This document shows, piece by piece, positions 1 through 18,991 of a DNA stretch of 64,000 nt. Numbering within the stretch: the first letter of the stretch is position 1; each line of letters opens with the position of its first letter. The notes beneath the pieces were generated by a model. That model saw nothing but the letters and a program-made list of their open reading frames with translations, was not told the DNA's origin and made no database searches. The stretch is from an uncultured Actinomycetota bacterium. GTDB taxonomy: Bacteria; Actinomycetota; Actinomycetes; JACCUZ01. A program made the translations under genes and the position numbers. The stretch spans positions 1,040,187-1,104,186 of the forward strand of contig OY970120.1 in the NCBI GenBank assembly GCA_963705885.1, in the 5' to 3' direction.

Positions 1-2
1 AG

Positions 3-512
3 GGCTCCGGCATCCCGTACGGCCTCGGCCTGGTGAAGAACTCCTACGTCGGGCGCACGTTCATCCAGCCCTCGCAGACCATCCGGCAGCTCGGCATCCG
101 ACTCAAGCTCAACCCGCTGCGCGAGGTCATCGCCGGTCAGCGCCTGGTCGTGGTCGACGACTCGATCGTGCGGGGCAACACCCAGCGTGCGCTGGTGCGG
201 ATGCTGCGCGAGGCCGGCGCGGCCGAGGTGCACGTGCGCATCTCCTCCCCGCCGGTGAAGTGGCCGTGCTTCTACGGCATCGACTTCGCCTCCGCCGGTG
301 AGCTGATCGCCAACGGGCTGACGGTCGAGGAGATCCGGACGTCCATCGACGCCGACTCCCTGGCCTACATCTCGCTCGAGGGCCTGGTGGGCGCGACCGA
401 GCAGCCGACGGAGAACCTCTGCCGGGCGTGCTTCGACGGGGTCTACCCGGTCGAGCTCCCCGAGCCCGAGCTGCTCGGCAAGCACCTGCTCGAGGTCGAG
501 CCGCCCGCCTGA
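3..512 (+). CDS. purF: Amidophosphoribosyltransferase, C-terminal part (gene starts before the window)
   Basis: [16 protein letters not shown]-binding [20 protein letters not shown] and LCRACFDG motifs of PurF; purM lies downstream. Confidence 0.97.
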
Positions 513-3281
513 CTACCAGGCCACCAGCTTCCACAGCTCGGGGCGCGGCTCCTCGCCCTCGCCCACCTCGGCGAAGAGCGTCACGGCGATCTTGAGGTGC
601 TCGAGCGCCTCGTCCCTCCGACCGCTCGCCTGCAGCAGGTCGGCCAGGTTGTTGTGCAGGGCGGCCGCGCGGTGTCGGTCGCCCAGCTCGGTGCACACGC
701 TCAGCGCCTCCCGCGTCAGTGCGGTCGCGTCGTCCAGCTCGCCGCCCGCCCGGTGTGCGAGCGCGAGGTTGTTCAACGCCGCGACGAGCAGGTCCCGGTC
801 ATCGGCGCCCTCGGCCAGCCGTCGGCTGCGGGTCAGCTCCGCGACCGCGGTCGCCAGGTCGGCGTCGGCGGTGGCGAGCAGGCCGAGCAGGTTGTGCGCC
901 TGGCAGCGGGCGCGGTCGTCCCCGCCCCGCTCCGCCAGCGCCGCGGCCTGCCGGGCGAGGTCGCGAGCCCTCCCGGCGTCGCCCAGCTCGTGGACGGTGA
1001 GGCTGAGGTCGGCCGTGACCCGGGCCCGCGCACCGGCATCGGCCTCGGACAGCCCGGCGAGCGCCTCGAGCAGGTGTGCCTCGGCTAGGACCCACTCGCC
1101 GCGGCGGTGCTGCAGCCGGCCGAGCCGGTGCTCGACGTCCGGCAGGTCACCGGCAGCCGCGGTCGCGGCCGCCTCCTCCAGCGTCTGCAGTGCGGCTGCG
1201 TAGTCGCCCAGGACCGTCTGCACGTCGGCCGTCGCGCTCAGCACCGCGGTGCGCTCGGGGTGGCCCAGCGCGGCGGCCCGGAGGAGGTGGTCGAGGGCCT
1301 CCGCGTGGGCGTACACGGCACGTGCCCGCTCGGCCGCCCGCCAGTGCGCGAGGGCGGCCTCGTCGTCGCGGCCCGCCAGCTCCAGGTGTCGTGCCGCGGC
1401 GCCCGCCCGGGTCCCCGGCACGTCAGCCGCCCTGCCGTGCAGCAGCCGGCGGCGCGCGAGGCTGGTCTCGTCGTACACCAGCGCGCGCAGCTGCTCGTGC
1501 GAGAAGTCGTAGCCGTCCGGGCCCTCCCGGACCAGCCCACGGCGGACGAGCTCCTCGAGTGCCGAGACCGTCTCCTCGTCGCCGCGCCCGCTCACCGCGC
1601 GGACGGTGTCCACGTCGAACGAGCGCCCGGTCACGGCGGCGGCGGACAGCACCTGGCGCCCGGTCTCGGTCACCGGGTCGAGCCGTGACCGCAGCACGTC
1701 GCGCACACCCTCCGGCAGCGGTGCGTCCGGGCCGCCGGGCGAGAGCGACCGGAGGTACTCCACGAGCAGCAGCGGGACCCCTTCGGTGCGCTCCCACAGC
1801 AGCCGCGCGAGGGCGGGGTCCTGGTCGCCGGGTCGTGAGTGGGTGACCATCTCGGCCACCGCCTCGGGTCCCAGCCGTTCCAGCCGGCACTGCACGCCCC
1901 CGCCGGAGCGGGCCGCCTCCAGCGCGGCGCGTCGCAGCGGGTGCTCCGACGGCGTCCGCCAGGTCAGCAGGAGCAGCACCTGACGGCCGGCGAGGCGCCG
2001 CAGGGCGTACGAGACCAGGGACACCGTCGCGTCGTCGGCCCACTGGACGTCCTCGACGACAAGGACGCCCGGTCGGTCGCCGGCGGCCGCGGCGGCGAGC
2101 ACGTCCCACAGCCCCGCCAGGAACCGGGCCTCGGCACCCGGACCGTCCAGCGGGGCTGCGCCGAGGCCCGTCGCCCGGGCTTCGAGCAGCTCGGGCAGCA
2201 GCCTGGCCGCCTCGGCGACCGAGGTGTCGGCCACGCCGTCCAGCCACGACGTGTCGCTGCGCAACCGGCTGCGCAGGGCGTCCACCAGCGGCGCGTACGC
2301 CAGGGCCGACTCGTCCTCGTGGGCGCGGACCACCACCGGCGCCTCGCCCGCGCCGACAGCCGACAGCAGCTCCTCCACGAGCCGCGACTTGCCGATGCCC
2401 GGCTCGCCCTCGACGACCGCGACCCGGCCGTCCGCACCCACGTCGCGGTATGCGTCCAGCAGCGCCTGCACGTGCGCCGACCGCCCCACGAACGGCGGCA
2501 GCACGGGCACCGCGACCGGCACCGAGACACCTCGTGCCGGTGGCGGCTGCCTCGGTGCCGGGTCGAACGTCCCGGCGTTGATCGCCTCGTACAGCGCGGT
2601 CGTCTCGGCCAGCGGAGGGACGCCGAGCTCTCGGGACAGGGTGCGGACGCACTCGCGGTACTGCGTGAGCGCGGCGGCGCGGTCACCGGTACGCGCGTGC
2701 AGCCGGATCAGCGCCCGGTGGGCGGGCTCGTGCAGCGGGTCGAGGTCCAGCCAGCGACGAGCGTGCCGCAGCGCGGCAGCGGCGTCCCCCGCCGTCTCGG
2801 CCGCCGCCGTCAGGTCGGCGAGGACCCCGGCGAGCTCCCGGGTCAAGGCCTCCGCCTCGGCCCGCACCCAGTCCTCGAAGTCGGGGGCGTCGCGGACCGC
2901 GAAGCCCTCCAGGAGCTCGCCCCGGAAGGAGGCCGCGGCACCCTCGAGGTCGCCGCGCGCCCGAAGGGTGCGGAACAGGTCGACGTCGACCTGCAGGCGC
3001 GGCCCTCTGACCAGCAGAACATGGTCGCGGGTGGTCTCCAGCGCATCGGAGCCGACGGCGGAGCGCAGCGATGTGAGGGTCCGGCGGAGTGCGCCGCGGG
3101 CGCGCTCGGGGTCCGTGCCCGGCCACAGCAGGTCGGCCAGGGCATCACGGGGGCGCGGACGGTCTGTCAGCGCGAGGTGCGCGAGCAGGGCCATGGCCTT
3201 GCGGGTGTCGAAGGCCACCAGGTCGCCGTCGCGCTCCACCCGGGGAGGGCCAAGCAGGCTGACCTCGATCACGCGCGCCAT
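513..3281 (-). CDS. Large transcriptional regulator: N-terminal winged-helix + BTAD, STAND/AAA ATPase, C-terminal TPR repeats (~922 aa)
   Basis: Start MARVIEVSLLGPP; BTAD-like LDPLHEPAHRALIRL...LSRELGVPP; Walker A GEPGIGKS; Walker B VVEDVQWAD; repeated NNLA/HNLLG TPR helices. Start trimmed from the ORF track to ATG 3281. Confidence 0.9.
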   Translation of the reverse strand: MARVIEVSLLGPPRVERDGDLVAFDTRKAMALLAHLALTDRPRPRDALADLLWPGTDPERARGALRRTLTSLRSAVGSDALETTRDHVLLVRGPRLQVDVDLFRTLRARGDLEGAAASFRGELLEGFAVRDAPDFEDWVRAEAEALTRELAGVLADLTAAAETAGDAAAALRHARRWLDLDPLHEPAHRALIRLHARTGDRAAALTQYRECVRTLSRELGVPPLAETTALYEAINAGTFDPAPRQPPPARGVSVPVAVPVLPPFVGRSAHVQALLDAYRDVGADGRVAVVEGEPGIGKSRLVEELLSAVGAGEAPVVVRAHEDESALAYAPLVDALRSRLRSDTSWLDGVADTSVAEAARLLPELLEARATGLGAAPLDGPGAEARFLAGLWDVLAAAAAGDRPGVLVVEDVQWADDATVSLVSYALRRLAGRQVLLLLTWRTPSEHPLRRAALEAARSGGGVQCRLERLGPEAVAEMVTHSRPGDQDPALARLLWERTEGVPLLLVEYLRSLSPGGPDAPLPEGVRDVLRSRLDPVTETGRQVLSAAAVTGRSFDVDTVRAVSGRGDEETVSALEELVRRGLVREGPDGYDFSHEQLRALVYDETSLARRRLLHGRAADVPGTRAGAAARHLELAGRDDEAALAHWRAAERARAVYAHAEALDHLLRAAALGHPERTAVLSATADVQTVLGDYAAALQTLEEAAATAAAGDLPDVEHRLGRLQHRRGEWVLAEAHLLEALAGLSEADAGARARVTADLSLTVHELGDAGRARDLARQAAALAERGGDDRARCQAHNLLGLLATADADLATAVAELTRSRRLAEGADDRDLLVAALNNLALAHRAGGELDDATALTREALSVCTELGDRHRAAALHNNLADLLQASGRRDEALEHLKIAVTLFAEVGEGEEPRPELWKLVAW

Positions 3282-3315
3282 CCCGTCACGGTGCTCCCCC
3301 GGCTCGGGCCAAGAT

Positions 3316-3333
3316 CGTAACGATTTCTGTACG
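3316..3333 (+). promoter_or_regulatory. Candidate regulator-binding motif upstream of the sensor array (copy 1)
   Basis: CGTAACGATTTCTGTACG, 16/18 identical to 11873-11890; ACG repeated at 11-bp spacing; overlaps inverted repeat TGTACGCC (3328-3335) / GGCGTACA (3349-3356). Confidence 0.6.
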
Positions 3334-3387
3334 CCGGCGGCTGAGTCTGGCGTACAACAGGGAACTGGGGGAGGGAGGTCGCGCCGG

Positions 3388-4578
3388 ATGAGCCTGCGGC
3401 GTCTCGCCTGGGGACTGTTCGCGCTGTTCGTCGTCCTGGAGGTCGCGACGCTCTGGCTGATCTGGGACGGGCCGGACACGGCAGGCGACTCCGTCGGAGT
3501 CGTCGTCATCGGGTACGCCTTCGTCGGGGCACTCGTCGCCTCCCGTCGTCCCCGGGTGGCGGTCGGCTGGCTGCTCCTCGCGATCGCGGTCGGCTTCGCC
3601 GTGGACCTGGCCGGCGAGGCCTTCGCCCACTACCCGTCGGGCACGCCCGGATACCTGCCGGTCGTCTGGACCTCGGGCCTGGTGTTCACCGTCTGGATCA
3701 CGTTGGCAGTCCTGTTCCTCCCCCTCGTGTTCCCCGACGGACGGCTGCTCTCGTCTCGCTGGCGGCCGGTTGTGTGGCTCGGCGCGGTCGCGGTGACTGC
3801 GAGCATCGCGGGCTCCGCCGTCCGGCCCGGCGAGCTTGCCGCGTCGAACGGAGCGCAGCCCGCGACCCAGAACCCGTTCGCGGTCGGTGGCGTCGCGGCC
3901 GACGTCGCGGCGCTCGCCAATGTCGTCGGCAACCTGCTCATCGCTCTCGGCGTCGCGCTCGGGGTCGTCTCCCTCGTGCTGCGGTTCCGAAGGTCACGCG
4001 GGACTCAGCGGCAGCAGCTGAAGTGGTTCGTCTATGCATGCCTGGTGGCCCTGTCCGGCCTGGCGGTGGCCGCGGCGGCCGAGCTGCCCGGGTTCCCCTG
4101 GACCGAGCTGGTCGGGGGGATCGGCTGGATGACGTTCCTGTTCGGCGTCCTGGTCGGGATCCCGGTCGCGACCGGCGTCGCGATGCTCCGGCACCGGCTC
4201 TACGACATCGACGTCGTCATCAACCGGACGTTGGTCTACGCCTCGCTGACAGCGGTCCTGCTGGGGACGTACGTCGGGCTGGTGCTGCTGATGCGCCTGG
4301 TCATCGACCCCGTGACGGGCCAGTCCGACCTCGCTGTCGCCACTTCCACGCTGGCGGTGGCCGCGCTCGTGCGCCCGCTGCGCAGCCGCATCCAGGCGGC
4401 GGTGGACCGACGGTTCTACCGGGCGCGGTACGACGCGGCGCGGACGCTTGAGTCCTTCAGCACCCGGCTGAGGGACGAGCTGGACCTCGAGGCGCTCGGC
4501 ACCGACCTGCGCCGGGTCGTGCGCGACACGATGCAGCCGGCCCACGTCTCTTTGTGGGTGCGCGAGGAGGTCCGATGA
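3388..4578 (+). CDS. Multi-pass membrane sensor-like protein, paralogue 1 of 7, ends in N-terminal half of a GAF-like fold
   Basis: ATG 3388 after GGAGG; ~10 hydrophobic segments; VGWLL, FPDGRLLSSRWR, RQQLKW, HRLYDIDVVINRTLVY, tail DTMQPAHVSLWVR. Confidence 0.88.
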   Translation: MSLRRLAWGLFALFVVLEVATLWLIWDGPDTAGDSVGVVVIGYAFVGALVASRRPRVAVGWLLLAIAVGFAVDLAGEAFAHYPSGTPGYLPVVWTSGLVFTVWITLAVLFLPLVFPDGRLLSSRWRPVVWLGAVAVTASIAGSAVRPGELAASNGAQPATQNPFAVGGVAADVAALANVVGNLLIALGVALGVVSLVLRFRRSRGTQRQQLKWFVYACLVALSGLAVAAAAELPGFPWTELVGGIGWMTFLFGVLVGIPVATGVAMLRHRLYDIDVVINRTLVYASLTAVLLGTYVGLVLLMRLVIDPVTGQSDLAVATSTLAVAALVRPLRSRIQAAVDRRFYRARYDAARTLESFSTRLRDELDLEALGTDLRRVVRDTMQPAHVSLWVREEVR

Positions 4579-5792
4579 CCCGCCGGACGGCCACGGCCCT
4601 CGCGTGGGCCGGTCTCGGCCTCTGGGGTGCGCTTCTCGCGTTCGTCGTCGCGGCGATCGTGGCCGGACGGGGGACGGCGGACGAGGCGTTCATCGCCCTG
4701 ACCGTCGGGTACGCCCTGGTGGGGACCCTCGTCGCGGCGCGGGAGCCCCGGAACGCCGTCGGCTGGCTGCTGCTCGGCATCGGCATCTCGTTCGGCGCGC
4801 AGGCAGCGGCCGACGCGTACATCGCGGGAGAGGACCCGCTGCCAGGACGGACGGCGGTGGCCTGGTTCGCGGCGTGGGCCTGGTACTTCTGGATCTACCT
4901 CGCGGCACTGGTCCTGCCGCTGGTGTTTCCCACCGGCCGGGTGTCCTCCCCGCGATGGCGCTGGGTTCTGCGGATGGCCATGGCCTCGCTCGCGTTGAGC
5001 GTCGTCGGTGAGGCCTTCAAGCCAGGCGCCCTCGACGTCGACACGTCCGACGTCATCGACAACCCCTTCGGTGTCGGCGGGGCACTCGGCAGGCTGCTGA
5101 CCTACGGCAGCAACGTCGCAGACTTCCTCGTGGCCGCCGGAATCGTCCTGGGCGGGGTGCAGATCGTCCGGCGACTGCGCGGAGCGCGTGGCAGGGAGCG
5201 CCAGCAGCTGACGTGGTTCGCCTACGTCGGCGGTCTCGCACTGGTGGCGCTCTCCCTGGCCATGGTCGCGGCGCTGGCAGAGCCGTACGTCGAGGAGGGG
5301 GATGCGCCGACCTGGATGCTCGTGACCGGCGCCGTGGGTTGGTTCGGTGCGCTGTTCCTCATCGCGGTGGGCATCCCTGCCGCTGTCGGGGTGGCGGTCC
5401 TGCGGCACCGGCTCTACGACATCGACGTCGTGATCAAGCGGACACTCGTCTACGGCTCTCTGACCGCGGTTCTCGTGGTCGCCTACCTCGGGCTGGTCCT
5501 CACCTTCCGGCTCGTGCTGCAACCGCTGACGGGGGAGTCCGACCTGGCGGTCGCCGCGTCCACGCTCGCCGTCGCGGGCCTGTTCCGACCGGTGCGGGCC
5601 CGCATCCAGGCCGGCGTCGACCGCCGCTTCTTCCGTGCGCGCTACGACGCGGCACAGACCTTGGAGAGCTTCTCGGCGCGGCTGCGCGACCAGCTCGACC
5701 TCGACGCCCTGGGCACGGACCTGGGGAGCGTTGTGCGGCACACGATGCAGCCGGCGCACGTGTCGCTGTGGCTGCGGGAGGTGTCGCGGTGA
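4575..5792 (+). CDS. Multi-pass membrane sensor-like protein, paralogue 2 of 7
   Basis: ATGA overlap with previous stop; NAVGW, FPTGRVSSPRWR, HRLYDIDVVIKRTLVY, QPAHVSLWLR. Confidence 0.88.
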   Translation: MTRRTATALAWAGLGLWGALLAFVVAAIVAGRGTADEAFIALTVGYALVGTLVAAREPRNAVGWLLLGIGISFGAQAAADAYIAGEDPLPGRTAVAWFAAWAWYFWIYLAALVLPLVFPTGRVSSPRWRWVLRMAMASLALSVVGEAFKPGALDVDTSDVIDNPFGVGGALGRLLTYGSNVADFLVAAGIVLGGVQIVRRLRGARGRERQQLTWFAYVGGLALVALSLAMVAALAEPYVEEGDAPTWMLVTGAVGWFGALFLIAVGIPAAVGVAVLRHRLYDIDVVIKRTLVYGSLTAVLVVAYLGLVLTFRLVLQPLTGESDLAVAASTLAVAGLFRPVRARIQAGVDRRFFRARYDAAQTLESFSARLRDQLDLDALGTDLGSVVRHTMQPAHVSLWLREVSR

Positions 5793-6994
5793 CCCGCCGG
5801 GCAGCGAGCCGCCTGGCGTGGTCGGTCTTCGCCGTGTCGAGCGGGGCGAGCGCCACCGGGCTGCTGCTCCTGGCGGTGCTGCCTGCCGGTGCCCTCGACC
5901 GGGTCGGTGACTCGGTGTGGCTCTCGGGCTCGTTCGTCATGGTCATGCTCGTGTTCGGTCTGGTCGGTGCCGTGGTCGCGTCCCGGCTGCCGGCCAACCC
6001 GGTCGGCTGGCTGTTCCTAGGGCTCGCCGCGCTGCAGGGCGCCACCGGGCTGGCCTACGGCCTGGCCTGGTACTCCGTGTCCGTCACTCGCATCTCTGGT
6101 GGCGTGTGGCTGGGGTGGTTCGCCAACTGGTCAAGCGTTCTGACGCCGGTGCTGCTCGGTCTCGCGTTCCTCGTCTATCCCGACGGCCGCCTGCCTTCGA
6201 CGCGCTGGCGGTGGGGAGCCGCGTTGGTCGTCGCGGCCATCGTCCCGGTCGTGCTGACGTCGGCACTCGTGCCAGGACGCATCGACGACGTCCCGCAGCT
6301 GCGCAACCCGGCCGGCGTCGACGGGGCGGCCTGGCTCGCCGACCTCCCCACCGACCTCTGCTACCTGGTGATCCTCGTCACGGCGTCCGCGGGCGTCGTG
6401 ATGCGGTTCCGGCGCTCCCGCGGGACGGAGCGTGCCCAGCTGAAGTGGTTCGCCTGGTCAGCCGCGCTACTCACCGCGTACCTGCCGGCAGCGGCTGTCG
6501 CCACGGCCGTCGGGGGCTCCGGCTCCTCGAGGGCCGACGCCGTTGCCGGCCTGGTGTTCGCCGTCGGTCTGTGCGGCCTGCCGGTCTCCGTCGGCATCGC
6601 CGTGCTGCGGCACCGGCTCTACGACATCGACGTGGTGATCAACCGGACGCTGGTCTACGGCGCGCTCACCGCGGCGCTCGTCCTGGTCTACCTGGGGTCG
6701 GTCCTGGCGTTCCGGCTGGTGCTCGACCCGGTGGTCGGCCAGTCCGACCTCGCGGTCGCGGCGTCGACTCTCGCTGTGGCGGCGCTGTTCCGTCCGCTGC
6801 GCTCCCGCATCCAGTCGGTCGTCGACCACCGCTTCTACCGGGCGCGCTACGACTCGCAGCGGACGCTGGAGTCGTTCGGGTCCCGGCTGCGTGACGAGCT
6901 CGACCTCGACACCCTCGGCCTCGACCTGCGACGTGTGGTGCGCGACACCATGCAGCCGGCCCACGTGTCCCTGTGGCTGCGGGGCGAGCCGTGA
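5789..6994 (+). CDS. Multi-pass membrane sensor-like protein, paralogue 3 of 7
   Basis: GTGA overlap; NPVGW, YPDGRLPSTRWR, HRLYDIDVVINRTLVY, QPAHVSLWLR. Confidence 0.88.
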   Translation: MTRRAASRLAWSVFAVSSGASATGLLLLAVLPAGALDRVGDSVWLSGSFVMVMLVFGLVGAVVASRLPANPVGWLFLGLAALQGATGLAYGLAWYSVSVTRISGGVWLGWFANWSSVLTPVLLGLAFLVYPDGRLPSTRWRWGAALVVAAIVPVVLTSALVPGRIDDVPQLRNPAGVDGAAWLADLPTDLCYLVILVTASAGVVMRFRRSRGTERAQLKWFAWSAALLTAYLPAAAVATAVGGSGSSRADAVAGLVFAVGLCGLPVSVGIAVLRHRLYDIDVVINRTLVYGALTAALVLVYLGSVLAFRLVLDPVVGQSDLAVAASTLAVAALFRPLRSRIQSVVDHRFYRARYDSQRTLESFGSRLRDELDLDTLGLDLRRVVRDTMQPAHVSLWLRGEP

Positions 6995-8166
6995 GGCGCC
7001 TCCCGATCGCCCTCGCGGCGGTCGCCTGCGTCCTGTCCGTCGCTGGGTCGGGCGCATCCTCGGTCATCAACTGGACGAGCATCGTCGACCTGCCCTTCGC
7101 GGTCGCGTTCGCGCTGCTGGGCGTTGCGAGCGCGGCCACCGGCGCCGTCGTCGCCTCCCGGCTGCCCCGCAACGCCGTGGGCTGGCTGATCCTGGGGCTC
7201 GGGCTGGGCGTCGGCGTTCTCCTGTCCGTCGGCGCCTACGCGGAGGTCGGGGTCGACACCGACGGCGAGCCGTTGCCGGGGTACAGCGCGGCCGCGTGGC
7301 TGGGTGACGTCACCGGGATCCCGGTCTTCTTCGGCGTCACCGGCTTCCTGTTGCTCCTCTTCCCGACCGGTCGGCTGCCGGGGCCGCGCTGGCGAGCGGC
7401 GGCGTGGTTCTTCGGGCTGACCGTCCTCGTGGCCTGGGCGTCCTACGGGCTGGCGCCCGGCGAGGTCGGGTCCGGGGTGCCCAACCCGGTGGCGCTCGGC
7501 GGTAGTGCCGGGGAGCTCGCGCGACGCGTCGCTGACCTCACCAACCTGCTCGCCCTGCCTGGGCTGGGCGCGTGCGGCGCCGCGCTTCTCGTCCGCCTGC
7601 GGCGGTCGCGCGGCGTGGAGCGGCAACAGCTCAAGGCGTTCACCTACGCCGCGACCCTGGTGGTCCTGGGGTTCGGCACGACCGTGGTGGCTCACGGCGT
7701 GGTCGCCGACCTCGCGTTCCTGCTCGGGCTGGTCGCCCTGGCCGCGCTGCCGGTCGTGGCCGGGGTGGCCATCATGCGGCACGGGCTGTACGGCATCGAC
7801 ATCGTCATCAAGCGCACACTCGTGTACGCCCCGCTGACCGCGCTGATGGTCTGCGCCTACCTCCTGATCGTGCTGGGCCTGCAGTCGCTGCTGCGTCCGC
7901 TCGCCGGCGAGTCCCAGCTCGCCGTCGCCGCCTCGACCCTGGCGGTCGCGGCGCTGTTCCGGCCGCTGCGGTCACGGATCCAGGAGGCGGTCGACCGGCG
8001 CTTCTACCGGGCCCGGTACGACGCGGCGCGCACGGTCGCGTCGTTCAGCGGCCGGCTGCGGGACGAGCTGGACGTGGATGCGCTCGCCGAGGATCTGCGG
8101 CGGGTGGTCGCAGACACGGTGCAACCGGCCCACGTGTCGCTCTGGCTGCGGGAGAAGGCCTCGTGA
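6991..8166 (+). CDS. Multi-pass membrane sensor-like protein, paralogue 4 of 7
   Basis: GTGA overlap; NAVGW, FPTGRLPGPRWR, HGLYGIDIVIKRTLVY, QPAHVSLWLR. Confidence 0.88.
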   Translation: MRRLPIALAAVACVLSVAGSGASSVINWTSIVDLPFAVAFALLGVASAATGAVVASRLPRNAVGWLILGLGLGVGVLLSVGAYAEVGVDTDGEPLPGYSAAAWLGDVTGIPVFFGVTGFLLLLFPTGRLPGPRWRAAAWFFGLTVLVAWASYGLAPGEVGSGVPNPVALGGSAGELARRVADLTNLLALPGLGACGAALLVRLRRSRGVERQQLKAFTYAATLVVLGFGTTVVAHGVVADLAFLLGLVALAALPVVAGVAIMRHGLYGIDIVIKRTLVYAPLTALMVCAYLLIVLGLQSLLRPLAGESQLAVAASTLAVAALFRPLRSRIQEAVDRRFYRARYDAARTVASFSGRLRDELDVDALAEDLRRVVADTVQPAHVSLWLREKAS

Positions 8167-9347
8167 GCCGGGCGGTCGCCGCGCGGCTGGCGTGGAGCCT
8201 GTGGGCGGTCGACGTCGTGACGGTCGGCGTGTTCTTCCTGCTCGACGGGGTCGGTGCGGGTCTGGCGAGCAGCATCTCCGGCGGGGTGTTCATCCTCGCG
8301 TTCGCGACGACCGGCGCGCTCGTCGCCACCCGCCACCCGGGGAACCCGGTGGGGTGGCTGCTCTGCCTCGCCGCGCTCGCGTTCACCGTCGGGGGTCTGG
8401 CTGTCGCGGTGTCCGACAACGCCGTTCGCGCGCGGGAGTACGACGGACCGCTGGTCGCGGCAGCCGCCTGGGCAGGCACGTGGGTCTGGATGGCCGGGAT
8501 CGGCCCGGCGGCGACGTTCCTGCTCCTGCTCTTCCCCGACGGCCGGCTTCCGTCCCGCCGGTGGCGGCCGGTGGCGTGGCTGGCCGGTTCCGCGCTGGGC
8601 CTCACCGTCGTGGGGCTGGCGCTCGCGCCGGGGCGGATCGAGGGCACTCCGGTCGTCAACCCGTTGGGTGTCCCGGGCGCGGGTGCCGTCCTCGGCGTAG
8701 CGGCCGGCGTCGGGCTGGCCCTGCTGTTCGTCAGCATCCTGCTGTCGTGCGCGTCCCTGGTCGCGCGTTTCCGCGCGGCGCCGGCAGACCAGCGCCAGCA
8801 GCTGAAGTGGGTGGCCTACGCACTCCCCGTCGTGCTGATGTGGCTGGCAGCGTCGATCGTGCTGGAGTCGACCCAGACCAGCGAGGCAGCCGTCGACCTG
8901 GCCAACACCCTGGTGTCCGTCGGGCTCACCGTCGTCCCGGTCACGATCGGCGTGGCGATGCTGCGGTACCGGCTCTACGACATCGACGTCGTCATCAACC
9001 GGACGCTGGTCTACGGCTCGCTGACAGCTCTGCTCGCCGGCGTGTACCTCGGCTCGGTCCTGCTGCTCCAGCTCGTCCTCGCCCCCCTCACCGAGACCTC
9101 GGACCTGGCGGTGGCGGCGTCGACGCTGGCGGCGGCTGCGCTCGTGCGGCCCGCGCGGTCGCGCATCCAGGGCGTCGTGGACCGGAGGTTCTTCCGTGGG
9201 CGGTACGACGCGACGCGCACCCTGGAGTCCTTCACGGGGCGGCTGCGTCAGGAGGTCGACCTGGACTCCGTGAGCGCCGACCTCCGTGGCGTGGTCCGCG
9301 ACACGGTCCACCCCGCCCACGTCTCGCTGTGGCTGCGGGGCACCTGA
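8163..9347 (+). CDS. Multi-pass membrane sensor-like protein, paralogue 5 of 7
   Basis: GTGA overlap; NPVGW, FPDGRLPSRRWR, YRLYDIDVVINRTLVY, HPAHVSLWLR. Confidence 0.88.
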   Translation: MSRAVAARLAWSLWAVDVVTVGVFFLLDGVGAGLASSISGGVFILAFATTGALVATRHPGNPVGWLLCLAALAFTVGGLAVAVSDNAVRAREYDGPLVAAAAWAGTWVWMAGIGPAATFLLLLFPDGRLPSRRWRPVAWLAGSALGLTVVGLALAPGRIEGTPVVNPLGVPGAGAVLGVAAGVGLALLFVSILLSCASLVARFRAAPADQRQQLKWVAYALPVVLMWLAASIVLESTQTSEAAVDLANTLVSVGLTVVPVTIGVAMLRYRLYDIDVVINRTLVYGSLTALLAGVYLGSVLLLQLVLAPLTETSDLAVAASTLAAAALVRPARSRIQGVVDRRFFRGRYDATRTLESFTGRLRQEVDLDSVSADLRGVVRDTVHPAHVSLWLRGT

Positions 9348-10615
9348 TGCCCCTGCTGCCCGACTCGACCCTGCGCAGGGCGGCGTGGGCCCCGTCCGTC
9401 CTCCTGGCCGCCATGATCGCGGTCGGGCTCCTGATCTCGTTCGCCGAGCAACCGGTGGTCCCTGAGCCCGGCGTCGGCTGGGACGACTCGAGCGCCAGGG
9501 CGGATGCCGCGTTCTCGGCCATCATCCTCGTCTTCCCCCTGGTCGGGCTCCTGATCCTCCGGCGTCATCCGCGCAACACGGTCGGATGGCTGCTCCAGGG
9601 CATCGGGCTCGCGTGGGCGCTCGGGGCCGTGAGCGACAACTACGTGCGGTATGCCCTGCTGGTCGACCCCGGCGCCCTTCCGGCTGCTGATGTGGTGGCC
9701 GCCCTTGGGGAGGGCCACTGGGTGCCGGCGGTAGGGCTGATGGGCGGCTTCCTGCTCCTGCTCTACCCCGACGGTCACCTGCCGTCGCGCCGGTGGCGAC
9801 TCGTCGGGTGGCTCAGCGGGGTGACGATGGTCGTCGCCTATCTCGGTGTCACGCTCGCCCCTGGCGCGCTGACCGCGCCCGCCCCGGTCGAGAACCCCCT
9901 CGTTCTCACAGCGGCCGGGTCGGTGCTCACCGTCGTGTCGTTCGGCTCCGTCGCCCTCCTGCCGGTCTGTGTCGTGGCCTGCGCCGCAGCCCTGGTCACG
10001 CGGTTCCGTCGTTCGAGCGGGGTCGAGCGGTTGCAGCTGAAGTGGCTCGCCACGGCCGGCGGGACAGTGGCGGCGCTCTACCTCCTGCTCATGAGCCTGG
10101 GGGCTCTCGCGTCGCTCGGGGCGTTCGGCGACGAGAGCGTCGTGCGCGCGACCTGGCTGGGCTGGCTGGAGACCGGCACGGTTGTCTCGTTCGTCCTCAT
10201 CCCGATCGCGCTCGGCTTCGCCCTGATGCGCTACCGGCTCTACGACATCGACGTCGTCATCAACCGCACGCTGGTCTACGGCCTGCTCACCGCGGCCCTG
10301 GCCGTCGTGTACCTCAGCTCGGTGCTCGTGCTCCAGCTCGTGCTGAGCCCGCTCACCGACCAGTCCGACCTGGCGGTGGCCGCCTCCACCCTCGCCGTTG
10401 CGGCCCTGTTCCGGCCGGCCCGGGCGCGCATCCAGGCGGTCGTGGACCGGCGGTTCTTCCGCCGGCGGTACGACGCCGCGCGGACCCTGGACGACTTCGC
10501 GTCCAGGCTGCGCCACGAGGTCGACCTGGAGGCGGTCGGGGCGGACCTGCGAGCGACCGTCCGGGACAGCGTGGCTCCGGCGCACGTGTCCCTGTGGGTG
10601 AGGAGCGTCTCGTGA
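9347..10615 (+). CDS. Multi-pass membrane sensor-like protein, paralogue 6 of 7
   Basis: TGATG overlap; NTVGW, YPDGHLPSRRWR, YRLYDIDVVINRTLVY, APAHVSLWVR. Confidence 0.88.
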   Translation: MPLLPDSTLRRAAWAPSVLLAAMIAVGLLISFAEQPVVPEPGVGWDDSSARADAAFSAIILVFPLVGLLILRRHPRNTVGWLLQGIGLAWALGAVSDNYVRYALLVDPGALPAADVVAALGEGHWVPAVGLMGGFLLLLYPDGHLPSRRWRLVGWLSGVTMVVAYLGVTLAPGALTAPAPVENPLVLTAAGSVLTVVSFGSVALLPVCVVACAAALVTRFRRSSGVERLQLKWLATAGGTVAALYLLLMSLGALASLGAFGDESVVRATWLGWLETGTVVSFVLIPIALGFALMRYRLYDIDVVINRTLVYGLLTAALAVVYLSSVLVLQLVLSPLTDQSDLAVAASTLAVAALFRPARARIQAVVDRRFFRRRYDAARTLDDFASRLRHEVDLEAVGADLRATVRDSVAPAHVSLWVRSVS

Positions 10616-11877
10616 CCGGACCAGAGGCCCCGCGCGTGTCGGACCGTGCCCTGCGCCGGCTGTCGTGGGTCGTTCCCGCCCTCCTCGCCGCCGTCTACGC
10701 CGTGTCCATGCTGGTCGCGCTCGCCGAGCCGGCTCGCGCCGGCGGGGCCTGGGAGGGCGGCGGGATGCTCACCGAGGTCATGTTCGCCGCCGTGATCCTG
10801 ATGTTCTCGTTGACCGGACTGCTGATCGTCCGCCGGCAGCCACGCAACACCGTCGGGTGGGTGCTGCAGGGCGTCGGGGCCGCCTGGGGGCTCACCGGGG
10901 TGACCGACGCCTACGCCGCGTACGGGCTGGTGGTGCGGCCGGGTTCCCTGCCCGGCGCGGACGTGGCGGCGGCGCTCAGCAGCGGCGGCTGGGCTCCGGG
11001 AGTCGGCGTCATGGGCACCTTCCTGCTGCTGCTCTACCCCGACGGGCACCTGCCGTCGCCACGATGGAGGGTCGTCGCCTGGCTGTCGGCCGTGACGATC
11101 ACGGTGGTGACCGTCACGATCACGTTGTCTCCCGGGCCGCTCGGGGTGGCGCCGGCGCCGGACCTGCGGAACCCCCTCGGCCTGGAGTCCCTCCGCACCG
11201 AGCTCCTGGTCGTGCTGGCCGTCGCCCTGCCGCTCTTCCCGCTCTGCATCCTGGCCAGCGCGGCCGGGCTGGTGCGCCGGTTCCGCCGGTCTCACGGCGT
11301 GGAGCGGCTCCAGCTGAAGTGGCTCGCGACCGCTGGTGCGGCGGTCGCCTTCCTCTACCTGTGCGCGATGGCGTCATCGCTGCCTCGGATCGTCTCGTCC
11401 CCGGACCAGGGCGATCCGGGCTGGCTGAGCGCCTTGCAGAGCGTCATCCTGTTGTCGTTCGTGCTCCTGCCGGTGTCGATCGGCATGGCGATCCTGCGTT
11501 ACCGGCTCTACGACATCGACGTGGTCATCAACCGGGCGCTGGTCTACGGCTCGCTGACGGCCGCGCTGGCAGCCGTCTATCTCGTCTCGGTGCTGGTGCT
11601 CCAGCTGGTGCTCAGCCCGCTCACCGACCAGTCCGACCTCGCCGTGGCCGCCTCCACCCTCGCCGCGGCGGCCGTCTTCCGGCCGGCGCGGACGCGCATC
11701 CAGGGCGTCGTGGACCGCCGGTTCTTCCGGCGCCGGTACGACGCGACGCGCACACTGGACGACTTCACGGCCCGGCTGCGCCACGAGGTCGACCTGCGAG
11801 CAGTGGGATCCGACCTCAGCGCGACCGTCCGCGACGCGGTCCAGCCGGCGCACCTGTCGCTGTGGCTGCGGCCGTAA
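10612..11877 (+). CDS. Multi-pass membrane sensor-like protein, paralogue 7 of 7 (closest to paralogue 6)
   Basis: GTGA overlap; NTVGW, YPDGHLPSPRWR, YRLYDIDVVINRALVY, QPAHLSLWLRP*. Confidence 0.88.
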   Translation: MTGPEAPRVSDRALRRLSWVVPALLAAVYAVSMLVALAEPARAGGAWEGGGMLTEVMFAAVILMFSLTGLLIVRRQPRNTVGWVLQGVGAAWGLTGVTDAYAAYGLVVRPGSLPGADVAAALSSGGWAPGVGVMGTFLLLLYPDGHLPSPRWRVVAWLSAVTITVVTVTITLSPGPLGVAPAPDLRNPLGLESLRTELLVVLAVALPLFPLCILASAAGLVRRFRRSHGVERLQLKWLATAGAAVAFLYLCAMASSLPRIVSSPDQGDPGWLSALQSVILLSFVLLPVSIGMAILRYRLYDIDVVINRALVYGSLTAALAAVYLVSVLVLQLVLSPLTDQSDLAVAASTLAAAAVFRPARTRIQGVVDRRFFRRRYDATRTLDDFTARLRHEVDLRAVGSDLSATVRDAVQPAHLSLWLRP

Positions 11878-11890
11878 CGATGTCTGGACG
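11873..11890 (+). promoter_or_regulatory. Candidate regulator-binding motif upstream of the phosphatase/STAS genes (copy 2)
   Basis: CGTAACGATGTCTGGACG, 16/18 identical to 3316-3333; contains the TAA stop of paralogue 7. Confidence 0.6.
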
Positions 11891-11961
11891 GTCGACGCCG
11901 ATGCTGTTCTTGAGACGGAAGGGAGCGGGGAGATGACCGGGATGCTGCGAGAGGTGCACCC

Positions 11962-13620
11962 ATGACAGCCCTCACCGGCTCGTTCCGGCGCCGCTTCCTC
12001 GGCCGCTCCTCGACGGCGCAACGCGCCGCCTCGCACGAGAGCACCGAGCTGCTGGCCGCTCCGCAGGACGACGTCGCGCCGGTCGACATCGCCCCGAACG
12101 ACCCGCTTCTCGCCTACCTGCAGAGCGCCAGCGGTGCCGTCGACGTCGACGCGCTGGAGCTCGACTCGCCGGCACTGGCGGCGATGAAGGAGGCCGGGGT
12201 CAGGCTGGCCGTGCCGCTGGTCAGCCAGGGCGAGCTGATCGGGGTGCTGAACCTCGGACCGCGGCGGTCCGAGCAGGAGTACTCCTCCGACGACCGCAAG
12301 CTGCTGGACAACCTCGCGGCGCAGGCCGCGCCGGCGCTGCGGGTCGGCCAGCTGGTGCGCCAGCAGCAGGCCGAGGCGCGCACCCGGGAGCGCTTCGAGC
12401 AGGAGCTCGAGGTCGCGAGGCTCATCCAGCAGAACTTCCTGCCCAAGCAGCTTCCGGACCTCCCCGGCTGGCAGGTCGCCGCCTACTACCGCCCCGCCCG
12501 CGAGGTAGGCGGGGACTTCTACGACGTCATCCCGTTGCCCGACGGCCAGGTCGGCTTCGTCGTCGGCGACGTGACCGACAAGGGGGTGCCCGCGGCGCTC
12601 GTCATGGCCGCCACCCGCAGCGTGCTGCGGGCCTCGGCACAGCGTCTCGTGGACCCGGGTGCCGTGCTGGAGCGGGTGAACGAGCACCTGTGCCCGGACA
12701 TGCCGGAGAAGATGTTCGTCACCTGCCTCTACGGCGTCCTCGAACCGGCCACGGGGCGGTTCCGGTTCGCCAACGCCGGCCACGACCTGCCGTACGTGAA
12801 GACGGCCGAGGGGTCGGTCGAGCTGCGAGCACGCGGCATGCCGCTCGGACTGATGCCCGGCATGGTGTACGAGGAGAAGGAGGCCGTGCTCGCGCCCGGG
12901 GAGTCGGTGCTGCTGCACTCCGACGGCGTGGTCGAGGCGCACAGCCCCGACGGCGAGATGTTCGGCTTCCCTCGGCTGAAGGACGCCGTCGCCCGCTACC
13001 CCGGCGGCGGCGAGCTCATCGACCGCGTCCTCACCGACCTGCACGCGCACACCGGACCCGGCGCGGAGCAGGAGGACGACATCACGATGGTGACCCTGTC
13101 CCGCTCCGCCGGAGCGGCGTCTAACGGGACCGGTGCGTCGCCGCTGCACCAGCTGGTCGAGTTCGAGGTCCCCAGCGCCGAGGGCAACGAGCGCCTCGCG
13201 CTGGCGCGGGTGAGCACGATCGTCGGGCCCCTGGGGCTGGACGAGGCGCGGCTCAAGCGCCTCGAGACGGCGGTCGGCGAGGCCACCATGAACGCGATGG
13301 AGCACGGCAACCGCTACCGCGCGGACCAGCCGGTGACGGTCCGGGTGCTGACCGAGAGCGACCGGGTCCGGGTCCAGATCGTCGACCAGGGCGGCAGGAC
13401 GCGGGACGTCGAGACCGAGGTGCCCGCCGAAGTCCCTGACCTCGAGGCGAAGCTCGCCGGCCTCCAGCGGCCCCGCGGGTGGGGGCTGTTCCTGATCAAG
13501 AACATGGTCGACGAGGCCCACGAGTCCAGCGAGGACGACCGCCACACCCTCGAGCTGGTCATGCACCTGACCGAGTCCGCTCCCGCCCCCGACGAAGGAG
13601 ATCGTCATGACGACGAGTGA
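11962..13620 (+). CDS. C-terminal half-GAF + PP2C/SpoIIE-type Ser/Thr phosphatase + RsbW-like HATPase (anti-sigma kinase) fusion
   Basis: GAF C-half LAVPLVSQGELIGVLNLG...DDRKLLDNLAAQAAPAL; PP2C motifs VGGDFYD, GDVTDKG, HSDGVVE, EDDIT; HATPase boxes EATMNAMEHGN, DQG, RGWGLFLI; GAGAGG RBS. Confidence 0.92.
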   Translation: MTALTGSFRRRFLGRSSTAQRAASHESTELLAAPQDDVAPVDIAPNDPLLAYLQSASGAVDVDALELDSPALAAMKEAGVRLAVPLVSQGELIGVLNLGPRRSEQEYSSDDRKLLDNLAAQAAPALRVGQLVRQQQAEARTRERFEQELEVARLIQQNFLPKQLPDLPGWQVAAYYRPAREVGGDFYDVIPLPDGQVGFVVGDVTDKGVPAALVMAATRSVLRASAQRLVDPGAVLERVNEHLCPDMPEKMFVTCLYGVLEPATGRFRFANAGHDLPYVKTAEGSVELRARGMPLGLMPGMVYEEKEAVLAPGESVLLHSDGVVEAHSPDGEMFGFPRLKDAVARYPGGGELIDRVLTDLHAHTGPGAEQEDDITMVTLSRSAGAASNGTGASPLHQLVEFEVPSAEGNERLALARVSTIVGPLGLDEARLKRLETAVGEATMNAMEHGNRYRADQPVTVRVLTESDRVRVQIVDQGGRTRDVETEVPAEVPDLEAKLAGLQRPRGWGLFLIKNMVDEAHESSEDDRHTLELVMHLTESAPAPDEGDRHDDE

Positions 13621-13969
13621 GCTGCCCACGGCGGTGCGGCACCGTGACCGGGCCGCCGTCATCGACATCGTCGGCGACGTCAACGGCTCGGCCGAGGCCT
13701 CCCTCGACCGCGCCTGGGCCGACGCCACCGAGGGCCGGCCCGAGGCGGTCGTCCTGAACTTCGAGGGTGCCGGCTACATCAACTCCACCGGCATCGCACT
13801 GATCGTCGGGATGCTCGCCAAGGCACGCGCCCACGGCATCCCGATCCGGGCCTACGGCCTGACGCCGCACTACCGCGAGATCTTCGAGATCACCCGGCTC
13901 GCGGACTTCCTGGCGATCAACCCCGACGAGGACAGCGCCCTGCGCGGCGCGGACGGGAGCACCACATGA
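13607..13969 (+). CDS. STAS domain anti-anti-sigma factor 1
   Basis: IVGDV, VVLNFEGAGYINSTGI, IFEITRL pattern of the SpoIIAA/RsbV family. Confidence 0.9.
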   Translation: MTTSELPTAVRHRDRAAVIDIVGDVNGSAEASLDRAWADATEGRPEAVVLNFEGAGYINSTGIALIVGMLAKARAHGIPIRAYGLTPHYREIFEITRLADFLAINPDEDSALRGADGSTT

Positions 13970-14316
13970 CCGAGGCGACAGCAACCTTCGGCGTGCGCCG
14001 GCACGGGTCGGCCGGCGTGGTCGACATCAAGGGCGACGTCACGTCCGGCTCCGAGGACGTGCTGATGAGCGCCTACGACGAGGCCGGCGACGCGAAGGCG
14101 ATCGTCCTGAACTTCACCGACCTGACCTACATGAACAGCGGCGGCATCGGGCTGCTGGTCACCCTGCTGGTCCGGGCGCAACGCAACGCGCAGCGCCTGC
14201 TCGCGTTCGGCCTGTCCGACCACTACCGGCAGATCTTCGAGCTGACCCGTCTCGACGAGGCGGTCGGCATCCACGACGACGAGCAGTCCGCGCTCAGCGC
14301 GGCCGGCGCGACCTGA
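13966..14316 (+). CDS. STAS domain anti-anti-sigma factor 2
   Basis: IKGDV, IVLNFTDLTYMNSGGI, IFELTRL; ATGA overlap. Confidence 0.9.
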   Translation: MTEATATFGVRRHGSAGVVDIKGDVTSGSEDVLMSAYDEAGDAKAIVLNFTDLTYMNSGGIGLLVTLLVRAQRNAQRLLAFGLSDHYRQIFELTRLDEAVGIHDDEQSALSAAGAT

Positions 14317-14333
14317 GCCCCGAGGAGGACACG

Positions 14334-15101
14334 ATGAGCGAGGTCAACGAAGCCACCGACAAGGCGGCCGCGCGCGACGCGACCCACTGGGCGAAGAAGG
14401 TCTCGCGGCTCGACGTGGGACAGGTGCCCGCCGGGGCGGTCGGCATCAACGTGAGCGGCAAGCGCCTCGCCGGGCCGATCCAGGGCTTCGGCAAGATGTG
14501 GCAGAAGACCTACCAGGTCCGGCTTCCCGGCGACCAGGTCACGCCGACCGACCTCATCGCCACCTGGAAGCAGCGGTTCCCGGAGTTCTGGCCCGAGGGC
14601 AACCGGTTCTACGCCCCGCTCACCGGCATCGAGCCCGGGGAGGTCGCGCTGATCGGCATGACGCTCCCCGGCCGGATGAAGCTCTCGACCGGAGTCATGG
14701 TCCTCTATGCCGACGACGAGTCGTTCACGCTCATGACTCCGCAGGGGCACATGTTCGCCGGCTGGATCACCTTCAGCGCGACGGAGCGGCTCGGGGAGAC
14801 CGTCGCGCAGGCCCAGGTCCTGATGCGGGCCTCCGACCCGGTCTTCGAGCTCGGCCTGACGCTCGGCGGCCACCGCCAGGAGGACAAGTTCTGGAACCAC
14901 ACGCTGCGTGAGCTCGCCAAGCACGTCGGCAGCGCGGACGCCGAGGTGTCGACCCAGGTCGTCTGCGTCGACCGCAAGCGGCAGTGGTCCCGCTGGACCA
15001 ACGTCTGGCACTCGTCGGCCATCCGGTCGACCCTCTACACCTTCGGTGCGCCGGTACGGGGACTACGGGGACTGGCGCACCGGGGGCGCACGGTTGGCTG
15101 A
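14334..15101 (+). CDS. Soluble hypothetical protein, probably co-transcribed with the partner-switching genes
   Basis: GAGGAGG RBS; globular Trp-rich composition (GPIQGFGKMWQKTY, GHMFAGWITFS); family not confidently recognised. Confidence 0.8.
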   Translation: MSEVNEATDKAAARDATHWAKKVSRLDVGQVPAGAVGINVSGKRLAGPIQGFGKMWQKTYQVRLPGDQVTPTDLIATWKQRFPEFWPEGNRFYAPLTGIEPGEVALIGMTLPGRMKLSTGVMVLYADDESFTLMTPQGHMFAGWITFSATERLGETVAQAQVLMRASDPVFELGLTLGGHRQEDKFWNHTLRELAKHVGSADAEVSTQVVCVDRKRQWSRWTNVWHSSAIRSTLYTFGAPVRGLRGLAHRGRTVG

Positions 15102-16521: not shown

Positions 16522-16532
16522 GCTCGCGGCCC

Positions 16533-17590: not shown

Positions 17591-17603
17591 TCCGCGCGGA
17601 TCT

Positions 17604-17653
17604 TCCATGATCGGAGACCGGTCGCGGTCTCGTGGACGCCGAACGGTCTCCGA
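17604..17653. repeat. Left REP-like palindromic repeat
   Basis: TCCATGATCGGAGACCG (17604-17620) is the exact reverse complement of 18614-18630; 17611-17653 is 37/43 identical to 18581-18623. Confidence 0.85.
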
Positions 17654-17690
17654 ACCCGCTGATCCTGGCGACCTGGGGACGACGAAGCCT

Positions 17691-18605: not shown

Positions 18606-18630
18606 CCTACGAACGGTCTCCGATCATGGA
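18581..18630. repeat. Right REP-like palindromic repeat
   Basis: TCGGAGACGG...CGGTCTCCGATCATGGA, partner of 17604-17653. Confidence 0.85.
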
Positions 18631-18652
18631 CATCCCGCGGCGGTTCGGGGGG

Positions 18653-18835
18653 TCAGCGGCGGTTCTCTGCCGTCCAGTCGTCGTACTCGTCCCGGTCGGC
18701 CTCGGTCATCTCGGACCGGTCGACGGAACCAGATGCGAGCTCGCGCTGCAGGGCCTCGAAGTCCGTTCCCTGCGAGCTGTACTTGAGCTCACGGGCGACT
18801 TTGGTCTGCTTTGCCTTGGCTCGGCCGCGCCCCAT
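18653..18835 (-). CDS. DUF3073 family small protein
   Basis: MGRGRAKAKQTKVARELKY signature; usual position next to purM in Actinobacteria. Confidence 0.93.
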   Translation of the reverse strand: MGRGRAKAKQTKVARELKYSSQGTDFEALQRELASGSVDRSEMTEADRDEYDDWTAENRR

Positions 18836-18991
18836 GGCTCGACCCCCTCATACGTGAACGGGGCGGCCAGCGCGTGGCGGCCCCGGATCTCGAGTGTTGT
18901 CCGTGGGTGCAACGGTACATGCCCCGCGACTGTTCCGCCCATCCCGTATCCGGCCCCCTGGCGCAGTCGGAGATCCCGGCGGGCGGCCGAG

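Follow-up and report, generated by a model that had tools for sequence, protein, structure and literature searches.

Seven tandem membrane sensors as probable interchangeable inputs to one signalling switch, with a GAF domain apparently divided between adjacent genes

What might seven consecutive genes for similar membrane proteins be signalling to, if none of them appears to carry an output domain of its own? The question is raised by a tandem array at positions 3388-11877 of a 64,000-nt stretch of DNA (here called the window; G+C 72%), which is part of the 3.63-Mb single-contig genome of an uncultured Actinomycetota bacterium (contig OY970120.1; G000 in our set). The original prediction for this DNA was a diversifying repertoire of receptors, and that reading overlooked both the missing output domain and a GAF domain split across genes. 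We propose that the seven sensors are probably interchangeable inputs to a single signalling switch, because, as far as sequence comparison can tell, they have no output part and each ends with the opening part of a GAF domain that the adjacent gene, encoding the output protein P0057, completes.

The sensor array and its output gene

The array consists of seven intact open reading frames (ORFs) on the + strand, without internal stops and encoding 391-422 aa, and the called frames are upheld by a G+C content at third codon positions (GC3) of 0.91-0.94. The array, its proposed GAF pieces and the output gene are laid out as follows.

3388..4578, + strand, sensor copy 1, 396 aa, type B
4575..5792, + strand, sensor copy 2, 405 aa, type C
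5789..6994, + strand, sensor copy 3, 401 aa, type D
6991..8166, + strand, sensor copy 4, 391 aa, type F, with a weak match to the PrsK model
8163..9347, + strand, sensor copy 5, 394 aa, type G, the sole type found in all five genomes with an array
9347..10615, + strand, sensor copy 6, 422 aa, type I
10612..11877, + strand, sensor copy 7, 421 aa, type J, stop codon TAA
11788..11874, + strand, tail of copy 7 (residues 393-421, VDLRAVGSDLSATVRDA VQPAHLSLWLRP), putative helix 1 and strand 1 of the GAF domain
11962..13620, + strand, output protein P0057, 552 aa, with an N-terminal motif, the GAF remainder, a PP2C (SpoIIE) domain and an RsbW-like HATPase_c_2 kinase
11962..12006, + strand, conserved N-terminal motif of P0057, MTALTGSFRRRFLGR (core also written MTALTGSFRRRF)
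12052..12360, + strand, GAF remainder (P0057 residues ~31-133), assigned by homology to the fused form, by Pfam GAF_3 and by the predicted complex interface

Pfam and NCBIfam scans of all seven copies returned nothing above cutoff, output domains included, and a HisKA-type dimerisation/phospho-acceptor domain or HATPase_c was found by these libraries in none of the seven. The sole recurring match, a weak one, is to the PrsK histidine kinase model over its membrane and linker portion; on this single-chain model copy 4 covers positions 180-347 and P0057 positions 406-476. The AlphaFold2 (AF2) model of copy 7, built on a 41-row alignment with a mean predicted local distance difference test score (pLDDT) of 84.3, contains ten transmembrane (TM) helices, a long cytoplasmic helix (342-392) and a short helix (395-409); the last dozen residues are disordered in the lone protein, and the final strand has a pLDDT below 50. 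As modelled, the copies are ten-helix sensor modules without an output domain of their own. A homologous tail terminates every one of them, and all stop at the same residue.

P0057 has a match to Pfam SpoIIE at residues 193-381 that covers the full model (5.8e-52), and its sequence contains GGDFYD, GDVTDKG, SDG and EQEDDIT, which we take to be the acidic metal-binding motifs of PP2C. It also matches Pfam HATPase_c_2 (2.2e-20), and the NCBIfam models SpoIIAB and RsbW fall on residues 397-529, under their equivalog cutoffs. Its GAF matches cover only the C-terminal part of that domain, namely 79-133 of the GAF model, 52-127 of GAF_3 (residues 45-126) and 89-135 of GAF_2.

Among longer relatives of copy 7 is P0008 (919 aa), in which sensor, GAF, SpoIIE and HATPase_c_2 parts follow one another in one chain. 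P0008 has 43% identity to copy 7 over 98% of the length of the copy and is colinear with a copy plus P0057; at the junction P0008 reads '...QPARVSVWLRDQTKVGAEALADIAPNDPVVAY...', the array copies end '...QPAHVSLWLR' and P0057 resumes '...DIAPNDPLLAY...'. Positions 1-132 of the 133 in the Pfam GAF model correspond to P0008 residues 378-499, and GAF_3 positions 1-127 to residues 378-500, which places the end of the copies at about GAF position 28, past the first helix and strand. In the AF2 model of P0008 this helix (379-394) and strand (399-403) form a block with a pLDDT of 86-87, against <50 for the orphan strand in the lone copy 7 model; beyond them lie the remaining GAF elements and then a long helix (483-533) that leads into the PP2C domain. 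A full-length GAF is also present in the fused relatives P0039 and P0022, and the other five of the eight scanned match it partly.

Of the 50%-cluster representatives, the 150 closest to P0057 comprise 29 with the whole sensor module in-chain, 51 with its C-terminal part and 70 with none. The long forms align with P0057 from its residues ~31-45 onward, so the GAF appears to be cut in the loop between strand 1 and strand 2. Since the copies have no GAF match, P0057 matches the C-terminal part only and P0008 covers positions 1-132, the GAF domain (PF01590 / PF13492) seems to be present here only as two pieces. Judged by sequence, then, the copies break off early in a GAF domain, of which their conserved tail is the starting portion and the next gene encodes the remainder.

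Structure prediction of the two pieces together points in the same direction. For the tail (copy 7 residues 352-421, 40-row alignment) paired with the start of P0057 (residues 1-140, 30 rows), the median score was 0.66 (runs 0.66, 0.64 and 0.74) and the best of three controls reached 0.00; contact agreement between runs was at least 87%, and the partner pLDDT at least 67. Of 157 solved complexes, 116 attain the mark for such predictions, as do 2 of 215 mismatched pairs, counts that are only approximate here, own alignments having been used. In the predicted complex, tail strand 412-419 lies antiparallel to P0057 residues 93-99 (IGVLNLG), helix 402-406 of the tail packs against P0057 helix 115-122, and the P0057 interface comprises residues 38-43 and 92-133. 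The prediction re-forms a GAF domain and supports binding of the tail to P0057.

The original prediction described the array as seven intact, translationally coupled copies, and both the ORFs and the junctions are as it described them. Each junction is a start/stop overlap, ATGA at 4575 and GTGA at 5789, 6991, 8163 and 10612, and copies 5 and 6 are joined by TGATG at 9345-9349 (a 1-nt overlap). A Shine-Dalgarno-like GGAGG or GAGGAG belonging to the next gene is encoded within conserved-tail codons (W-L-R-E-E) at 4555-4578, 5770-5792, 8144-8166 and 10593-10615, and the coupling signal and the protein tail would therefore be under joint constraint. From the stop of copy 7 to the start of P0057 there are 84 nt here, 112-113 nt in two relatives and ~550-560 nt in two others. 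A read-through fusion of copy 7 with P0057 is ruled out by the TAA stop, the 84-nt spacer and the conserved start that P0057 has of its own. We also ruled out silent cassettes that are recombined into an expression site, since every copy is an intact frame with a start and a ribosome-binding site, the order of the copies is maintained from genus to genus, and there is no recombinase in the cassette. An Rfam scan of positions 1-20000 of the window gave no match, and promoter and terminator scans gave nothing exceeding shuffles. Contigs from soil metagenomes (four DNA runs) that fell on 3000-14500 were all short, with the shorter side of every joint at most 26 letters at 90% likeness, and are of no use for judging copy-number polymorphism.

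Copies 2-7 have 41-52% amino-acid identity to copy 1. The division into divergent N-termini and a conserved stretch of about 120 final residues, claimed earlier, is borne out by the mean pairwise identity of the seven in 30-residue windows, which rises from 0.16-0.48 in the first ~300 columns to 0.64-0.79 in the last ~130, and 61 of the 83 invariant columns lie at or after residue 259 of copy 1. The motifs named as conserved (R.P.N.VGW, (F/Y)P.G.L.S.RWR, NP.G and R.QLKW) were all found, but R.QLKW is not invariant, reading QLTW in copy 2 and QLKA in copy 4. Likewise, the near-identical 3' DNA attributed to copies 6 and 7 proved to be overstated: an exact 26-nt string is indeed common to copy 6 (10346) and copy 7 (11614), with 0 expected by chance, but the identity of their 3' DNA is 76-90% in 90-nt windows, with identical runs of at most 38 nt. 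The longest identical aligned run between any two copies of G000 is 38 nt (copies 1 and 5), and runs between genomes reach 52 nt.

Mapped on the predicted topology, identity between types is 0.12-0.39 in the outer loops and 0.15-0.27 in the outer halves of TM1-8, compared with 0.19-0.54 in the inner halves (0.32-0.54 for TM2-8), 0.44-0.86 in the cytoplasmic loops and 0.58-0.86 in TM9-10 plus tail (the tail being given as 0.58-0.81). Within one type, the outer halves retain 0.37-0.64 identity. The copies thus look like receptor modules whose variation is concentrated on the predicted outer side, as had been proposed. A Foldseek search of the PDB with the membrane module returned nothing at E <= 0.001; VIA-align placed TM2-8 on 7TM folds with Z 9-11.3, below the caution line of ~13 for helical bundles, as is the best of these alignments (7kc4_B, rmsd 4.0, 231 aligned). 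In the ESM Atlas all scores for the N-terminal 340 residues were below 0.9, and a feature score of 0.83 to a cluster with HisKA_7TM (PF16927) in 11% of its members is a lead only, without a Pfam match.

Relatives of these sensors are numerous, with 5630 clusters at E <= 1e-10 among the 8000 scored, and those of similar length to the copies are all called 'hypothetical protein' where they have a name. Three distant and longer paralogues (L008, L009 and L010; E 1e-39 to 1e-42) lie outside the window in the same genome. L008 and L010 continue after the module into HisKA_3 and HATPase_c domains, and L010 alone of the two also shows a weak match to GAF_2. L009 (729 aa) has only a weak GAF_2 match, and no output domain is recognised in its C-terminal part.

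Distribution and history of the cassette

The array and P0057 are accompanied by four further genes, one divergent and three downstream.

513..3509, - strand, divergent SARP-like regulator (BTAD + AAA_16 + TPR; Pfam BTAD 5.5e-22, AAA_16 1.1e-23, TPR_12 1.3e-13)
13607..13969, + strand, STAS protein 1, 120 aa, start overlapping the end of P0057 by 14 nt (Pfam STAS 3.2e-11)
13966..14316, + strand, STAS protein 2, 116 aa, joined to STAS protein 1 by an ATGA overlap (Pfam STAS 2.9e-11)
14334..15101, + strand, conserved protein P0328, 255 aa, a further cassette member

The longest ORF of the SARP-like gene overlaps the start of copy 1 by 122 nt (3388-3509, both strands), so its true start is probably further downstream; with that start codon uncertain, Pfam showed no DNA-binding domain at E <= 0.001 in the 182 residues ahead of BTAD. 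The two STAS proteins score 52.2 bits (STAS 1) and 51.5 bits (STAS 2) against TIGR00377, just below the cutoff of 53.45, and they have a serine within YINSTG and YMNSGG, respectively, at what we assume to be the STAS phospho-site position. They are likely substrates of the P0057 phosphatase and kinase. P0328 has no Pfam or NCBIfam match and lies near DUF1990-like clusters in ESM Atlas features (0.98), no more than a lead. No other cassette member is as well conserved, and P0328 could be the switched target.

Our family set and order set contain the same 39 genomes, which are related, so that counts among them are not independent. The array occurs in five of them, with 7 copies in G000, 10 in G007, 8 in G018 (one frameshifted), 8 in G045 and 4 in G019, and orthologues of P0057 (E <= 1e-60) occur in the same five. 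Array and orthologue are both absent from the other 34, a tally that places the unpublished genome G015 among those without the array; no further result draws on G015. The SARP-like regulator is syntenic in all five array genomes, and close matches to it and to P0328 were not found in G042 (95% complete) and G044 (84% complete), two array-less congeners of carriers. All array junctions of the four relatives are 4-nt overlaps; in all five arrays (window, L011, L012, L013 and L014) internal copies stop with TGA in the 4-nt overlap, the 1-nt junction of copies 5 and 6 aside, and the last copy stops with TAA. The sole broken copy among the 37 in these genomes is copy 3 of G018 (L012 5662-6868), a type D copy that a frameshift has divided into two pieces (model positions 1-248 and 252-407). 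In G019 a 150-aa Polyketide_cyc2/SRPBCC gene (L013 6072-6524, - strand) lies between the last sensor and the output gene, and gaps of similar size stand before the output gene in G045 and in 18 loci of the wider scan (~350-745 nt).

That wider scan took one genome per species, dropped matches of <=60 bits and minus-strand matches, and gave 69 loci. Their hosts are Nocardioidaceae, Kribbella, Ornithinibacter, Geodermatophilaceae, Rubrobacterales, Solirubrobacterales, Thermoleophilaceae and two metagenome-assembled genomes (MAGs) of Chloroflexota. A stand-alone copy ending at most 30 residues from the model end was found in 67 of the 69, the other two being tandem fused kinases. Where at least 2.5 kb follow the last copy, a P0057-like gene lies downstream on the same strand in 36 of 49 loci, at gaps of 24-218 nt (17 loci), 350-745 nt (18) and 2918 nt (1). 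The variation in copy number foreseen for relatives was found, both among the five array genomes (4, 7, 8, 8 and 10) and across the 69 loci, where it spans 1-11, with 11 copies in L049; the 33 complete arrays have one (4 arrays), two (5), three (10), four (4), five (8) or eight (2) intact copies. A P0057-like gene is present in 39 of the wider loci, 30 of which have a SARP-like gene upstream on the opposite strand. Among the 33 loci that can be assessed, a P0328-like ORF follows the output gene in 32 (identity 44-84%, mostly 68-84%) and at least two STAS genes are present in 31.

A loose pattern of the N-terminal motif of P0057 recurs in 27 of 33 split-form output proteins from several orders, and the motif MTALTGSFRRRFLGR is not in the fused P0008; it may be a docking or membrane-binding peptide. 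Two loci of the wider scan, L072 and L083, have tandem arrays of 4 and 3 full-length fused forms that extend 304-347 residues past the sensor model, so multiplication also occurs without the split.

A tree of the 5' region (first ~300 columns, 37 rows including the broken G018 copy with X at the break; 22 of 34 inner branches starred) resolves about 12 types that are common to several genera, and no genome's copies cluster together. The gene order is A B C D E F G H I J in G007, B C D F G I J in G000, A C D F L G K plus one copy of the H/I/J clade in G045, A F G K in G019, and B C D(broken) E G J' K J in G018, where J' is an extra J-type copy. Because the type order is colinear, the differences in copy number are mostly losses, with one duplication. 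The array is ancient and not actively diversifying, as its ~12 types predate the split of the five genera. The idea of ongoing diversification and expansion does not survive this result, with types common across genera in the same order and no genome-specific clusters.

The original prediction had also proposed a dN/dS check, and at the level of regions it gives no sign of positive selection. Nei-Gojobori ratios for 26 orthologue pairs from four genomes (G045 was excluded, and type H, without an orthologue, gave no pair) are 0.22-0.87 in the N region and 0.16-0.56 in the C region, all below 1, and the N-region value is the higher one in 21 of the 26 pairs, the lower in 4 and tied in 1. The sensor tail is under the strongest constraint.

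Recombination through the conserved 3' thirds, the third element of the earlier scenario, holds for adjacent copies in relatives but has left no recent trace in G000. In the 3' tree, adjacent paralogues are sisters in G007 (copies 4 and 5, with a 244-nt identical run, and copies 7 and 8, with 86 nt), in G045 (copies 4 and 5), in G019 (copies 3 and 4) and, weakly, in G018 (copies 6 and 7). Approximately unbiased (AU) tests on the 3' DNA, run after a quick 3' tree had been inspected, reject four of eight groups defined by the 5' region (D, p = 0.00028; G, 0.00038; K, 0.0036; F, 0.00044), and groups E, C, A and B were not rejected. No sign of recent 3' exchange was seen in G000, as no two of its copies group in the 3' tree. 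Gene conversion that homogenises the 3' thirds of neighbouring copies is thus clear in relatives and not in G000. The picture is that of an old, ordered set of types that has been thinned by loss, with conversion between neighbours confined to the coupling end, and it corrects the impression of a fast-diversifying family.

A proposed mechanism and its alternatives

On balance we lean towards reading the seven genes as detached input subunits of one partner-switching system, formed by the sensors, P0057 and the STAS proteins. Each sensor would have a type-specific outer half (TM1-8) and a transmission part common to all, made up of TM9-10, the cytoplasmic helix and the first GAF helix and strand. 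The GAF remainder at the start of P0057 would lead via a long helix into the PP2C domain fused to the RsbW-like kinase. A sensor could dock on P0057 by supplying the missing helix and strand, and seven sensors made in similar amounts through coupled translation would then share or compete for one output. A cue at the outer half would alter the state of the GAF, linker and PP2C unit and thereby the phosphorylation of the STAS proteins, whose balance would depend on the phosphatase and kinase joined in P0057. For RsbU and other PPM phosphatases related to it, control by diverse N-terminal sensor domains, GAF included, via a crossing helical linker and dimerisation is proposed in PMC12143880; a helix between GAF and PP2C is likewise present in P0057 and its fused relatives, according to the fused-relative model.

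We suggest more tentatively, and with less than even confidence, that completion of the fold is itself the signalling step, with up to a dozen receptors competing to insert a helix and strand into one PP2C/kinase hub and the cue at the outer half of a receptor deciding whether its strand is offered. If so, this would be a plug-in integration of many membrane signals that is widespread in Actinomycetota and occurs in some Chloroflexota.

Several observations count against the scheme of detached inputs that dock on P0057. The tail is assigned to GAF through the Pfam coordinates of fused relatives, and a sequence search of the fused GAF region against the PDB gave nothing significant (best 3oov_A, E 0.27). 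Structure matches listed for the fused-relative model are mostly to PP2C (model residues 528-760), such as 3ke6 (RsbU and RsbW parts of Rv1364c; Z 26.6, 301 residues aligned, 25% identity), and leave the GAF part without coverage. The complex prediction may mirror likeness to GAF structures and not real affinity, because many single-chain structures of the fold to which the two halves belong have been solved. The scheme also gives no account of the conserved motif at the N-terminus of P0057, which lies outside the confident tail interface. No P0057-like gene lies downstream in 13 of the 49 assessable loci with stand-alone copies, 10 of the 13 being singletons. The gene behind the two stand-alone copies of L074 encodes a bare cyclase catalytic domain without a GAF remainder, so fold completion would not be the sole use of such tails, and this locus may represent a second kind of split output. 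The cyclase (12365-12934, + strand, 189 aa) is of class III (Guanylate_cyc 4.7e-19) and joined to the sensor by a stop/start overlap. Finally, no sigma-factor domain was found among the scanned cassette neighbours, and the genome was not searched for one.

Some of these points could equally be told by a reading in which the tail is a relic of gene fission and the copies act without touching P0057, for instance by forming mixed dimers through TM9-10 with the three full-length sensor kinases of the same family or through another membrane function. The genome does contain three longer paralogues, two of them fused to GAF-HisKA_3-HATPase_c, there are 10 singleton stand-alone copies elsewhere that have no P0057-like neighbour, and the complex pass may stem from fold memory. 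A relic would be expected to decay, however, and the tail, orphan strand included, is the most conserved part of copies that all end at the same residue; synteny and co-occurrence, moreover, are with P0057 and not with the kinases, and we regard a relic as improbable. About as unlikely, in our judgement, is the same docking with the opposite logic, in which the sensors keep P0057 inactive at the membrane, a cue releases it and the copies are redundant sinks. The coupled translation of seven sensors, set against one output gene behind an 84-nt gap, suggests an excess of sensors, and RsbT in Bacillus is controlled by sequestration and release (PMC12143880); yet the fused relatives cannot release their output, and nothing in these data bears on the sign of the response.

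The self-sufficient and actively diversifying repertoire of the original prediction, in which each copy signals alone and is reshaped by unequal recombination through the 3' thirds, agrees with the focus of variation on the outer half, with the variable copy number, with 3' exchange between neighbours in relatives and with the one lineage-specific extra J-type copy in G018. It is nevertheless very unlikely to be the explanation, as the copies have no output domain and occur strictly together with the output gene, the types are older than the five genera and have kept their order, region-wide dN/dS is below 1, and G000 has no recent exchange. Detached inputs to a P0057-centred switch therefore remain our preferred reading.

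If docking is real, it would offer a simple rule for wiring many membrane inputs to one output and would explain what a great many 'hypothetical' membrane proteins do. It would also be a natural trans-completion of a signalling fold, usable in engineered sensors.

Relation to known signalling systems

Partner-switching phosphatases and GAF sensors are textbook parts, and the split and multiplied arrangement appears new: in the literature we could not find described a GAF sensor domain that is split between genes and has a multiplied input half. The nearest likeness is to the single-chain sensor-GAF-SpoIIE-HATPase_c_2 proteins such as P0008 (source name 'SpoIIE family protein phosphatase'), which are uncharacterised and string together the same parts in the same order, from ten-helix module and linker to GAF, PP2C and kinase. 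Compared with these, the array system is cut inside the GAF, its input half is present seven-fold and its output half has gained a conserved N-terminal motif. PrsK-type membrane-GAF histidine kinases (TIGR02916; L008 and L010) have the same membrane module with a kinase output in the same chain, although the PrsK matches of copy 4 and P0057 are far under the curated cutoff (23 and 25 bits vs 300).

The Bacillus subtilis stressosome, in which one PP2C is fed by several RsbR paralogues that vary at the sensor end and are conserved at the docking end, is likewise a case of many paralogous inputs, built from variable sensing and conserved coupling parts, that converge through RsbT and RsbU on one phosphatase. 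Unlike the stressosome, the system described here has no STAS-type scaffold or RsbT-like kinase between sensors and phosphatase, its sensors are polytopic membrane proteins, and the coupling we propose is completion of a fold in trans. The PP2C domain of Bacillus RsbU is also controlled via a helical linker, as stated in PMC12143880.

As in P0057, PP2C and anti-sigma-kinase domains are joined in one chain in Rv1364c of Mycobacterium tuberculosis (3ke6). Rv1364c belongs to a partner-switching pathway and is, according to PMC12143880, a soluble protein with a PAS sensor and a fused STAS domain, whereas the system in the window would combine a split GAF and membrane inputs with separate STAS genes.

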